From the IMG/VR virus record IMGVR_UViG_2576861133_000011: a stretch of 16,731 nt of DNA. One strand, 5' to 3'. Made by a program: the position numbers and the translations under genes. This DNA comes from a virus. Taxonomy: Duplodnaviria; Heunggongvirae; Uroviricota; Caudoviricetes. Positions 1,509 to 3,693 of this stretch are shown here, one piece after another; the first letter of the stretch is position 1, and the number at the start of each line of letters is the position of its first letter. The notes under the pieces were generated by a model that was given only the letters and a program-made list of their open reading frames with translations, was not told the origin of the DNA and did not search any database.

Positions 1509-1748
1509 CTATTTCCTGCGCATGTCACGTAACTTCTTAATGTGTTCTGCCGTTTCGATCTCTTCTGCTATCCGATCTGCATCAGCTTTATTCACAGGTT
1601 CAAAGTCATGATTAAAGCGGAACATGCTGGCGATACATGTTCTGCCTTTTCGGATGTAGTGAACTTTGTTGTGGGTAGAACGCAGGATTTTGCAGGGAGT
1701 GCCGTGGTGGTCGACGTACCAGGTGTTAGGGTCAATCACTCTGAACAT
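1509..1748 (-). CDS. Hypothetical small phage protein, 79 aa
   Basis: Minus-strand ORF in the PL-operon orientation, overlapping the upstream ORF by 17 nt. No recognisable motif. Confidence 0.45.
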   Translation of the reverse strand: MFRVIDPNTWYVDHHGTPCKILRSTHNKVHYIRKGRTCIASMFRFNHDFEPVNKADADRIAEEIETAEHIKKLRDMRRK

Positions 1749-2061
1749 TCTTGACCTTGTGTTGTGCGGATTGATATTCAGTGCTGATATTCACCTTTAT
1801 AGCGAACACCTTTACCGGTTTATCGCCAAAGTGCGGATGTGTGATTGTCTTCACTTCATATCCGTCATACGGAACATCAATTCTGCGACTGGAATCGTCG
1901 CGCTTCGGATATCCCTTTGTGATAATCAGGCGGTCATATTCCCGGAACATAATTCGCTTATTCCAGTAGTCATTACACAAGCGATACTCTTCCGTTTTCT
2001 CTCCGCGAATCATGGCATCGAAGTATTCACTTTTAACAGCAAGTTGCAGGTTAGCCATCAC
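1732..2061 (-). CDS. ASCH-domain (PUA-like fold) protein, 109 aa
   Basis: Contains RGEKTEEYR near the N-terminus, which fits the GxKxxExR motif of the ASCH superfamily. ATGA start/stop overlap with the upstream zinc-finger ORF. GGGGG Shine-Dalgarno about 7 nt upstream. Confidence 0.55.
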   Translation of the reverse strand: MMANLQLAVKSEYFDAMIRGEKTEEYRLCNDYWNKRIMFREYDRLIITKGYPKRDDSSRRIDVPYDGYEVKTITHPHFGDKPVKVFAIKVNISTEYQSAQHKVKNVQSD

Positions 2062-2279
2062 TTAATCCCCCTTTGTTTGCGGATAAGCTCCAGATCTTGC
2101 TGGCAACTGGCGCAAGTCCGACAACCCTGAACGGCCAGGCGTCTTCGTTCATCTATCGGATCGCCACACTCACAACAATGAGTGGCAGATACAGCCAGGT
2201 AGTTCAGGCGGCGCATTTTTATTGCTGTGTTGCGCTGTAATTCTTCTATTTCTGATGCTGAATCAATGATGTCTGCCAT
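2058..2279 (-). CDS. TraR/DksA-family C4 zinc-finger protein, 73 aa (resembles lambda Orf73 class)
   Basis: CxxC-x14-CxxC arrangement (CCEC...CRTC) in a 73-aa protein. Sits between xis and exo, where lambda carries a TraR-like gene. Confidence 0.65.
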   Translation of the reverse strand: MADIIDSASEIEELQRNTAIKMRRLNYLAVSATHCCECGDPIDERRRLAVQGCRTCASCQQDLELIRKQRGIK

Positions 2280-2377
2280 CTTTCATTAATCCCTGAACTG
2301 TTGGTTAATACGCTTGAGGGTGAATGCGAACAATAAAAAAGGAGCCTGTAGCTCCCTGATAATTTTGCTTTTCATGT

Positions 2378-2659
2378 TCATCGTTCCTTAAAGACGCCGT
2401 TTAACATGCCGATTGCCAGGCTTAAATGAGTCGGTGTGAATCCCTTCAGCGTTACCGTTTCGCGGTGCTTCTTCAGTACGCTACGGCAAATGTCATTGAC
2501 GTTTTTATCCGGAAACTGCTGTCTGACTTTTTTGATTTCAGAATTAGCCTGACGGGCAATGCTGCGAAGGGCATTTTCTTGCTGAGGTGTCACTGAACAA
2601 GCCCCATGTCGGCAAGCATAAGCACACAGAATATGAAGCCCGCTGCCAGAAAAATGCAT
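2378..2659 (-). CDS. Hypothetical phage protein, 93 aa as drawn (start uncertain)
   Basis: Minus-strand ORF in operon orientation. No convincing Shine-Dalgarno before the first ATG, so the true start may differ. Confidence 0.4.
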   Translation of the reverse strand: MHFSGSGLHILCAYACRHGACSVTPQQENALRSIARQANSEIKKVRQQFPDKNVNDICRSVLKKHRETVTLKGFTPTHLSLAIGMLNGVFKER

Positions 2660-2669
2660 TCAGTGGTTG

Positions 2670-2861
2670 TCATACCTGGTCTCTCTCATCTGCTTCTGCT
2701 TTCGCCACCATCATTTCCAGCTTTTGTGAAAGGGATGTGGCTAACGTATGAAATTCTTCGTCTGTTTCTGCTGGTATTGGCACAAACCTGACTCCAATTT
2801 GAGCAAGGCTATGTGCCAAATCAATACTCGTTCTTAACTCAACAGGAGATGCTTTGTGCAT
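2670..2861 (-). CDS. Small phage protein, 63 aa (size and position match lambda orf63)
   Basis: 63-aa ORF two genes upstream of exo in the PL operon, as for lambda orf63. Homology not verified. Confidence 0.5.
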   Translation of the reverse strand: MHKASPVELRTSIDLAHSLAQIGVRFVPIPAETDEEFHTLATSLSQKLEMMVAKAEADERDQV

Positions 2862-3016
2862 ACCGCCCCCCGTTTATTATTTATCTCCTCAGCCAGCCGC
2901 TGGGCTTTCAGCGGATTTCGGATAACAGAAAGACCGTGAAATACCCAGCCTCGCTTTGTAACGGAGTAGACGAAAGTGATCGCGCCTACCCGGATATTAT
3001 CGTGAGGATGGGTCAT
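2834..3016 (-). CDS. Small phage protein, 60 aa from the second Met (position matches lambda orf60a)
   Basis: ORF directly upstream of exo. Starting at the second ATG (3016) gives 60 aa and a classic ATGA overlap with the exo stop codon. Confidence 0.5.
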
Positions 3017-3693
3017 CGCCATTGCTCTCCAAATACAAAACCAATTTCAGCCAGTGCTTCGTCCATTTTTTCGATGAACTCCGGCACCATCTCGTCAAAA
3101 CTCGCCATGTACTTTTCATCCCGCTCAACCACGACATAATGCAGGCCTTCACGCTTCATTCGTGGGTCATAGTTGGCAAAGTACCAGGCATCTTTTCGTG
3201 TCACCCACATGCTGTACTGCACCTGGGCCATGTAAGCCGACTTTATGGCCTCGAAACCACCGAGCCGGAACTTCATGAAATCCCGGGAGGTAAACGGGCA
3301 TTTCAGCTCAAGGCCATTGCCGTCACTGCATAAACCATCGGGAGAGCAGGCGGTGCGCATACTTTCGTCGCGATAGATGATCGGGGATTCAGTAACATTC
3401 ACGCCGGAAGTGAATTCAAACAGGGTTCTGGCGTCGTTCTCGTACTGTTTTCCCCACGCCAGCGCCTTAGCATTAACTTCCGGAGCCACACCGGTGCAAA
3501 CCTCAGCCAGCAGGGTGTGGAAGTAGGACATTTTCATGTCAGGCCACTTCTTTCCTGAGCGGGGCTTTGCTATCACGTTGTGAACTTCTGAAGCGGTGAT
3601 GACGCCGAGCCGTAATTTGTGCCATGCATCATCCCCCTGTTCGACAGCTCTCACGTCGATCCCGGTACGCTGCAGGATAATGTCCGGTGTCAT
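3013..3693 (-). CDS. exo: Lambda exonuclease (Red alpha), 226 aa
   Basis: Translation [40 protein letters not shown]...GFVFGEQWR is recognised from memory as near-identical to lambda Exo over the full length. ATGA overlap with bet. Confidence 0.95.

Follow-up and report, generated by a model that had tools for sequence, protein, structure and literature searches.

The exo-xis accessory module of a phage 21/ev207-like lambdoid prophage: a conserved block of small genes, with ASCH-like and DUF4222 genes in a variable slot

Introduction

The genes lying between exo and xis in lambdoid phages have been under study for more than 10 years (PMC3824215, PMC4195576, PMC6213356, PMC5575149, PMC8614690, PMC10869804). 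They influence both the lysis-lysogeny decision and induction in Shiga toxin (Stx) phages, and their accurate annotation is thus relevant to work on Shiga-toxin phage induction. This article describes one such region, at positions 1509-3022 of a 16,731-nucleotide (nt) stretch of DNA (IMG/VR virus record IMGVR_UViG_2576861133_000011), the whole of which is referred to below as the window. The window contains the left arm of a lambdoid prophage with its genes on the minus strand, in the order int, xis, interval 1509-3022, exo, bet, gam, a kil-like gene and an S24-type repressor gene. The interval itself is a known, annotated and very common element, the exo-xis module of a phage 21/ev207-like lambdoid prophage.

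The six minus-strand open reading frames (ORFs) placed here by a first-pass annotation are all present in the ORF map of the window at the positions it gave, and none is a chance frame, since each has a strong family match (PHROG E-values of 1e-25 to 1e-51). Read from exo toward xis, and with smaller features added, the interval holds the following:

2834-3022, minus strand: orf60a homologue (DUF1317), 62 amino acids from ATG 3022 or 60 from ATG 3016
2670-2861, minus strand: orf63 homologue (DUF1382), 63 amino acids, overlapping orf60a by 28 nt
2590-2673, minus strand: candidate hydrophobic ORF of 27 amino acids, MTTTECIFLAAGFIFCVLMLADMGLVQ, read from the sequence between orf63 and orf61
2378-2659, minus strand: 93-amino-acid ORF as first listed, the orf61 frame extended upstream to ATG 2659
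2378-2593, minus strand: orf61 core gene, 71 amino acids from GTG 2593
2286-2381, minus strand: 31-amino-acid ORF, in ATGA overlap with the orf61 stop
2339-2357, minus strand: terminator-like hairpin and T-run within the 31-amino-acid ORF (terminator scan)
2263-2286, minus strand: 7-amino-acid ORF (MKDGRHH), sharing one base with the preceding stop and overlapping the orf73 start by 17 nt
2058-2279, minus strand: orf73, a TraR-like C4 zinc-finger protein of 73 amino acids
1732-2058, minus strand: ASCH-like protein of PHROG 625, 108 amino acids from ATG 2058 (1732-2061 and 109 amino acids from a GTG)
1509-1748, minus strand: DUF4222 (RgdR-family) protein, 79 amino acids, overlapping the ASCH-like gene by 17 nt

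Identity and Prevalence of the Module

The module is bounded by well-known genes:

3013-3693, minus strand: exo (lambda exonuclease), the upstream boundary, 98.7% identical in amino acids to lambda exo and matching Pfam YqaJ
1133-1369, minus strand: xis (phage 21-type excisionase), the downstream boundary, 100% identical to the xis of phages 21 and ev207
1-1143, minus strand: int, adjoining xis

The nucleotide comparison used the interval with short flanks (1370-3100). Its identity is 99.7% with phages ev207 and PhiR63_2 and 97% with phage 21, and reaches 100% with many Escherichia coli chromosomes, where the prophage adjoins icd. At least 80% of it is found in 742 of 5426 complete E. coli genomes, or about one in seven, and the matching phage records are assigned to the genus Jouyvirus. 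Phage 21 (OL657228), ev207 (NC_049949) and the icd prophages all have the same order of int, xis, DUF4222, ASCH, TraR-like, orf61, orf63, orf60a and exo; at 97-100% nucleotide identity they show essentially no differences from the window, apart from a frameshift in orf61 of ev207 and a truncated orf63 in its RefSeq record. In the identical chromosomes, the names given by PGAP are DUF4222, ASCH domain-containing, TraR/DksA family, hypothetical, DUF1382 and DUF1317. Outside these annotations, Rfam gave no match at gathering thresholds across the whole window, and five of the cluster ORFs lack an NCBIfam model.

The likeness extends to lambda and the Stx phages. As in their exo-xis regions, the block sits between exo and xis and is co-oriented with exo, bet and gam (ORF map and annotations of identical records), with homologues of orf60a (DUF1317), orf63 (DUF1382), orf61 and orf73 in that order (Pfam, PHROG and tblastn to lambda). 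Amino acid identity to lambda is 98% for orf60a, 89% for orf63, 90% for orf73 and about 94% for orf61, the last measured across two frames split by a frameshift in the lambda reference. Where the two regions differ is downstream of orf73. The fifth conserved exo-xis gene, ea22, normally follows orf73 (PMC8614690), but here it is not next, the ASCH-like gene beginning instead at the orf73 stop, and ea22 has no match anywhere in the window. Lambda carries ea22, ea8.5 and orf55 in the slot that holds the ASCH-like and DUF4222 genes in the window. Four of the six ORFs first listed are thus the known lambda genes orf60a, orf63, orf61 and orf73, whereas the other two have no lambda counterpart.

Gene Junctions

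The first-pass annotation had described the six ORFs as packed with overlapping starts and stops. Four junctions do overlap (by 17, 1-4, 28 and 4-10 nt), but two gaps remain in the six-ORF model, one of 98 nt between the 93- and 73-amino-acid ORFs and one of 10 nt between the 63- and 93-amino-acid ORFs. Once the 27-, 31- and 7-amino-acid ORFs are counted, the chain becomes unbroken, with overlaps of 4, 28, 4, 4, 4, 1, 17, 1 and 17 nt from exo to DUF4222, so that translational coupling fits better than when it was first proposed. The cluster sequence is consistent with such coupling, which is itself a prediction. The chain ends at a 139-nt gap separating the DUF4222 gene from xis. In this gap, an AT-rich 16-bp inverted repeat (1463-1501) had scored as a plus-strand terminator-like site in the terminator scan; it was rejected as a terminator for the cluster, the fold of the coding-strand RNA being insignificant (z-score of -1.5).

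orf60a and orf63

The orf60a product scores 131.6 bits against Pfam DUF1317, and the shorter of its two starts, ATG 3016, overlaps the exo stop as ATGA. The orf63 product scores 99.8 bits against DUF1382 and matches PDB 8DSB (E-value of 2e-31), whose molecule name reads “Xis (Excision72)” and which is taken to be the nuclear magnetic resonance structure of lambda Orf63 on the basis of PMC10869804. In lambda and Phi24B, deletion of orf60a or orf61 alters the lysis-lysogeny decision and prophage induction, and Orf63 is a pro-lytic helical dimer (PMC6213356, PMC10869804, PMC8614690).

Within orf60a lies the equivalent of the t1 hairpin (2905-2945, minus strand). The stem-loop predicted for lambda and Phi24B is GAGGCTGGG-TATTT-CCCGGCCTT, whereas the window reads GAGGCTGGG-TATTT-CACGGTCTT; with two stem positions altered, this putative terminator would be weakened in the present prophage.

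The 31- and 7-Residue ORFs and the t2 Hairpin

The supposed 98-nt spacer upstream of orf73 is filled by two very small ORFs, both conserved in lambda: the 31-residue product is 100% identical to that of an unannotated lambda ORF, and the 24 nt of the 7-residue ORF recur as an identical string. PMC8614690, citing lambda ribosome profiling, reports peptides of 31 and 7 residues from orf2313 and orf2311; judged by length and position, the two ORFs of the window appear to be the same.

The hairpin at 2339-2357 has the arms AGGGAGCT-ACA-GGCTCCTT followed by a T-run, and matches t2-lambda (Table 4 of PMC4195576) except for two substitutions flanking the stem-loop. In lambda and Phi24B, t2 is a predicted terminator that has been suggested to reduce orf73/ea22 mRNA levels. 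A hairpin of the intrinsic-terminator type is thus embedded in a small ORF that, in the lambda profiling as cited, is reportedly translated.

The Start of orf61 and a Candidate 27-Residue ORF

The 93-residue ORF had been said to carry no recognizable motif. This is wrong: the ORF corresponds to lambda orf61 at full length (PHROG 303, E-value of 2e-39). Pfam matches of the same ORF to ZapA (17 bits, below threshold) and to PBCV_P4 were rejected as chance; some phage records nevertheless label orf61 “cell division protein ZapA.”

Where does this gene start? The 71-residue form is the one given by PGAP and in the record of phage 21, and orf61 homologues from Klebsiella and Yersinia phages are 72-74 residues long and align only to residues ~22-93. 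In 56 of 72 related loci an ATG stands in place of GTG 2593. Only two of nine changes in the 22 codons upstream of 2593 are synonymous, as expected without selection. The 93-residue ORF is therefore probably a 71-residue gene beginning at GTG 2593.

The stretch upstream of this start carries a different frame, with features of a gene in its own right. Where it begins, its ATG and the stop of orf63 form an ATGA overlap; where it ends, its stop and the start of the orf61 core form a GTGA overlap (ATGA in most relatives). The 27-residue peptide is identical in 60 of the 72 related loci, and 8 of 13 nucleotide changes in its frame are synonymous, against 23-26% expected (p of 0.003-0.008). Lambda encodes the identical peptide with three synonymous differences; the ORF is annotated neither there, nor in phage 21 and ev207, nor by PGAP. 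Beside orf63 homologues of greater divergence (70-78% identity), which lie in contexts with Ea22-family genes, the ORF is absent; there, Ea22-family or other genes follow orf63 directly. From these comparisons the ORF appears to be under purifying selection and to be an unannotated candidate gene, and lambda and its relatives may encode an overlooked 27-residue membrane peptide between orf63 and orf61. If the peptide is real, the textbook start of orf61 is wrong. The comparative data suggest correcting orf61 to its 71-residue core and adding the 27-residue hydrophobic ORF, in reference lambda as well.

The six-gene model could still be literally right: Orf61 would then have 93 residues from ATG 2659, positions 2280-2377 and 2660-2669 would be non-coding spacers, and there would be no extra ORFs. 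The 93-residue frame is open in most relatives, the PHROG 303 alignment spans all 93 residues, Stx-phage Orf61 is given as 93 amino acids (PMC8614690), and ATG 2659 is a canonical start where position 2593 of the window offers a GTG. Weighed against this are the 72-74-residue homologues that begin at residue ~22, the ATG at the internal start of most relatives with its ATGA overlap, and the contrast between 22 apparently neutral codons and a synonymous excess in the overlapping 27-residue frame. The published AlphaFold analysis of Orf61, moreover, covered residues 24-93 only, and the 98-nt “spacer” contains the two small ORFs reported as translated in lambda in the profiling cited by PMC8614690. 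The literal six-gene model is for these reasons rather improbable, and the shorter orf61 preceded by the 27-residue ORF is preferred here.

The intact 71-residue frame is present in 71 of 76 loci, the window included. Reference lambda (NC_001416) has, at about 30.87 kb, one A more than the A6 run of window 2528-2533, and its orf61 is thereby truncated to 61 residues; four ev207-type loci carry a different frameshift. These separate events indicate that orf61 has been repeatedly broken in sequenced isolates.

Orf73, a TraR-Like Protein

The 73-residue ORF had been recognized from its motifs as a TraR/DksA-type zinc-finger protein, and profile searches bear this out: Pfam zf-dskA_traR (PF01258) scores 36.0 bits against a gathering score of 24.9, and the expected motifs are kept. 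The narrower NCBIfam model TIGR02419 (C4_traR_proteo) is narrowly missed, at 55.1 bits against a cutoff of 59.7. In a three-way alignment with lambda Orf73 and F TraR, cysteines C35, C38, C56 and C59 align with those of TraR, and R46 and R47 are invariant; this arginine pair is the equivalent of TraR R48/R49, which contact the rim helices and β′ Si3. The N-terminus, M-A-D3-I-I-D6-S-A8, carries the DxxDxA motif and is identical to that of lambda Orf73, from which the whole protein differs by seven substitutions. A length of 73 residues, the N-terminal DxxDxA, the C4 zinc finger, the Arg-Arg pair and a C-terminal helix are common to all three proteins, although F TraR is only 32% identical to the protein of the window (E-value of 1e-4 to PDB entries 5w1s/6n57).

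The lambda protein is well characterized. It occupies the DksA site in the secondary channel of RNA polymerase, as TraR does; it inhibits rrnB P1 without guanosine tetraphosphate (ppGpp), with a half-maximal inhibitory concentration of ~50 nM, and more broadly inhibits rRNA and ribosomal-protein promoters; and under its influence the host grows more slowly and both phage yield and burst size increase (PMC9239242). The DxxDxA motif reaches the active site of the polymerase, and substitutions in it are reported to reduce Orf73 activity, D3N and D6N having been tested on rrnB P1 (PMC9239242). By homology to this 90%-identical protein, for which the activity is already published, the earlier suggestion that the 73-residue ORF binds RNA polymerase is probably right.

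The ASCH-Like Protein

The gene following orf73 likely starts at ATG 2058. This codon and the TGA stop of orf73 have one base in common, and the product is then 108 residues long, as in RefSeq. Its first assignment to the ASCH domain relied on a GxKxxExR motif. The motif is present, as G19-E-K21-T-E-E24-Y-R26, but the Pfam match stays below threshold: ASCH (PF04266) scores 14.3 bits against a gathering score of 21.2, over residues 7-29 only. The four motif residues are invariant in 40 close relatives; among 126 more diverse ones (36-76% identity), K21 is the sole invariant residue, conservation of G19, E24 and R26 is 90% or higher, and 10 relatives reach an E-value of 0.01 or better to Pfam ASCH. 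Searches of PDB sequences with the protein and with two family profiles gave no significant match, so the fold assignment depends on the predicted structure, a small beta-barrel closest to solved ASCH structures. The spacing of Y12, K21, E24 and R26 is that of Y14, K23, E26 and R28 in TthASCH of T. thermophilus, all four of which have been mutated, the K23/E26 dyad proving essential on tRNA (bioRxiv 10.64898/2026.02.27.708502).

Could the resemblance be a chance motif in an unrelated small beta-barrel with another function? The short sub-threshold Pfam match, the failure of the family profiles to find any ASCH structure in the PDB at significant E-values, and weak Foldseek hits (best E-value of 1e-2, TM-scores of 0.4-0.5) would all allow it. 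The conservation of the motif across the family, its spacing and the predicted fold are set beside these, and we consider a chance likeness very improbable. We conclude that the protein is a divergent member of the ASCH superfamily, in a phage-centred family of its own: PHROG 625 matches 332 phage records, among them Stx2, P22-like, Jersey-like and Ralstonia phages, and 1288 cluster representatives.

What would such a protein do? The closest characterized group is that of the amidohydrolases of N4-acetylcytidine (ac4C) and tRNA ac4C erasers, namely E. coli YqfB, TthASCH, human EOLA1 and TRIP4-ASCH. These enzymes have the small beta-barrel, PUA-like fold predicted here, and the same “GKER”-type GxKxxExR motif is found in the protein of the window, preceded by a conserved Tyr spaced as in TthASCH; they differ from it in showing only 9-22% identity in structural alignments, and the variant in the window has a disordered C-terminal tail. 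All 19 non-phage ASCH proteins tested remove ac4C from tRNA (bioRxiv 10.64898/2026.02.27.708502). By analogy, the phage protein would act on N4-acylated cytidine in RNA or nucleosides, binding or deacylating it by means of the conserved Lys/Glu/Arg motif. A literature search on phage ASCH functions returned annotation mentions only.

The single ac4C of E. coli tRNA is the wobble base of elongator tRNA-Met. One can imagine, by extension from the known enzymes, that the phage protein might serve as an early eraser of RNA ac4C for host takeover, acting beside Orf73, or in the salvage of ac4C nucleosides; we hold this more specific proposal to be unlikely. If true, either role would couple phage reprogramming of transcription to reprogramming of translation, and would provide a first function for PHROG 625, found in hundreds of temperate and virulent phages. 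The report of tRNA ac4C deacetylation by ASCH proteins gives a concrete assay for the family.

The DUF4222 Protein

Like the orf61 product, the 79-residue protein had been listed as motif-free; it is a clear member of DUF4222 (PF13973), at 68.5 bits against a gathering score of 27, and of PHROG 285 (E-value of 6e-37). The phage 21 counterpart is 89% identical. An AlphaFold model (predicted local distance difference test score, pLDDT, of 88) shows a five-stranded small beta-barrel followed by a 25-residue C-terminal helix, and its structural neighbors are generic SH3, Tudor, PWWP and KOW-like folds only.

The only characterized DUF4222 protein is RgdR (ECs1581), encoded by the prophage-like element Sp7 / CP-933C of O157. 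It turns on LEE1 and type III secretion, represses motility and shows weak, non-specific DNA binding (PMC3378721, PMC10877973); regulatory activity of this kind is known only from RgdR and close orthologues (PMC3378721). Against DUF4222, RgdR reaches 82 bits; its identity to the protein of the window is 24% (E-value of 7e-6). Both are small and prophage-borne, near int/xis among early genes, but RgdR is 99 residues long against 79, and its element (O-island 51 of E. coli O157:H7) has a reported P4 ancestry and places it beside a primase gene, in contrast to the lambdoid exo-xis region considered here. The RGD (Arg-Gly-Asp) tripeptide important for RgdR activity (PMC3378721) is not in the 79-residue sequence; in RgdR it occupies residues 20-22, N-terminal to the aligned region. 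Those hosts of the identical prophage that were examined are, as far as records show, not pathotypes positive for the enterocyte effacement locus (LEE). By analogy with this distant relative, the DUF4222 protein would be a beta-barrel-plus-helix regulator making weak contacts with nucleic acids or proteins.

Host-takeover and anti-defence functions had been expected in regions of this kind. A further possibility is that the ASCH-like and DUF4222 genes form an anti-defence or host-takeover cassette, the former removing or masking a modified base sensed by a host defence and the latter inhibiting a defence protein, for example. PADLOC models gave no match, although that library consists of defence proteins, not of anti-defence proteins, and PDB and literature searches found no characterized anti-defence homologue. 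The one characterized DUF4222 protein is, moreover, a transcription-linked regulator, and the characterized ASCH enzymes have ac4C, in tRNA or nucleosides, as their substrate. Such a cassette seems doubtful, and no evidence was seen for the cluster as a defence or anti-defence island. Two widespread phage families, the ASCH-like PHROG 625 and DUF4222, lie in this cluster, and the roles suggested for them here are drawn by analogy.

Variation After orf73

Gene content was surveyed in 80 IMG/VR loci, those whose Orf73 homologues are closest. From orf60a to orf73 the block hardly varies; what comes after orf73 is exchanged in a modular fashion. ASCH and DUF4222 genes occur together with phage 21-type xis/int in 16 loci, to which 4 loci ending before xis may be added; in 9 others ASCH is followed directly by lambda-type orf55 and/or xis. 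Variants of ea22 follow orf73 in about 30 loci, and orf55 does so directly in 14. Altogether an ASCH gene lies downstream of orf73 in 34 of the 80 loci, directly after it in 33, and in 30 of the 34 its start sits on the orf73 stop. Phage SfI (NC_027339) shows the converse arrangement, with DUF4222 directly after orf73 and no ASCH gene. It follows from this variation that the ASCH and DUF4222 genes are independent mosaic cassettes in a known variable slot.

Phage SfI offers one further observation, made over its positions 762-1514: the place of orf63 is taken by an annotated queuine tRNA-ribosyltransferase gene. This is a further RNA- or base-modification gene to occupy the mosaic slot that the ASCH-like gene uses.

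Proposed Role of the Cluster

As a whole, the interval is very probably best explained as a phage 21/ev207-like exo-xis accessory region. It is organized as a run of small genes in one orientation, each start overlapping the stop before it. A conserved half, shared with lambda and the Stx phages at 89-100% amino acid identity, comprises orf60a, orf63, the candidate 27-residue ORF, the orf61 core, the 31- and 7-residue ORFs and orf73; a variable half consists of the ASCH-like and DUF4222 genes, in the position of lambda's ea22, ea8.5 and orf55. Expression of the cluster is probably joint with that of exo, bet and gam, the early-left genes, and taken together its products would most likely tune host transcription, translation and the lysis-lysogeny decision.

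Several points weigh against this explanation. The pro-lytic and pro-lysogenic labels of the exo-xis genes derive from other phages, lambda and Phi24B. The ac4C activity of the ASCH-like protein is an extrapolation, as the characterized ASCH enzymes are non-phage proteins. The DUF4222 protein shares only 24% identity with RgdR and has no RGD motif. Finally, the leftward operon gave no sigma-70 promoter in a simple scan, and inspection by eye, with no search run, turned up no N-like gene; assignment to a pL (leftward promoter) operon is consequently based on synteny.

The Immunity Region

Further upstream, the S24-type repressor gene is separated from the kil-like gene by about 600 nt (5060-5655) in which there is no annotated gene and no N-like ORF was noticed. 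A terminator-like hairpin lies at 5516-5533 on the minus strand, just downstream of the repressor gene. The immunity region, with its repressor, cro-like and YdaT-domain genes, is of a different type from that of lambda, and the YdaT-domain gene is reminiscent of the Rac prophage.

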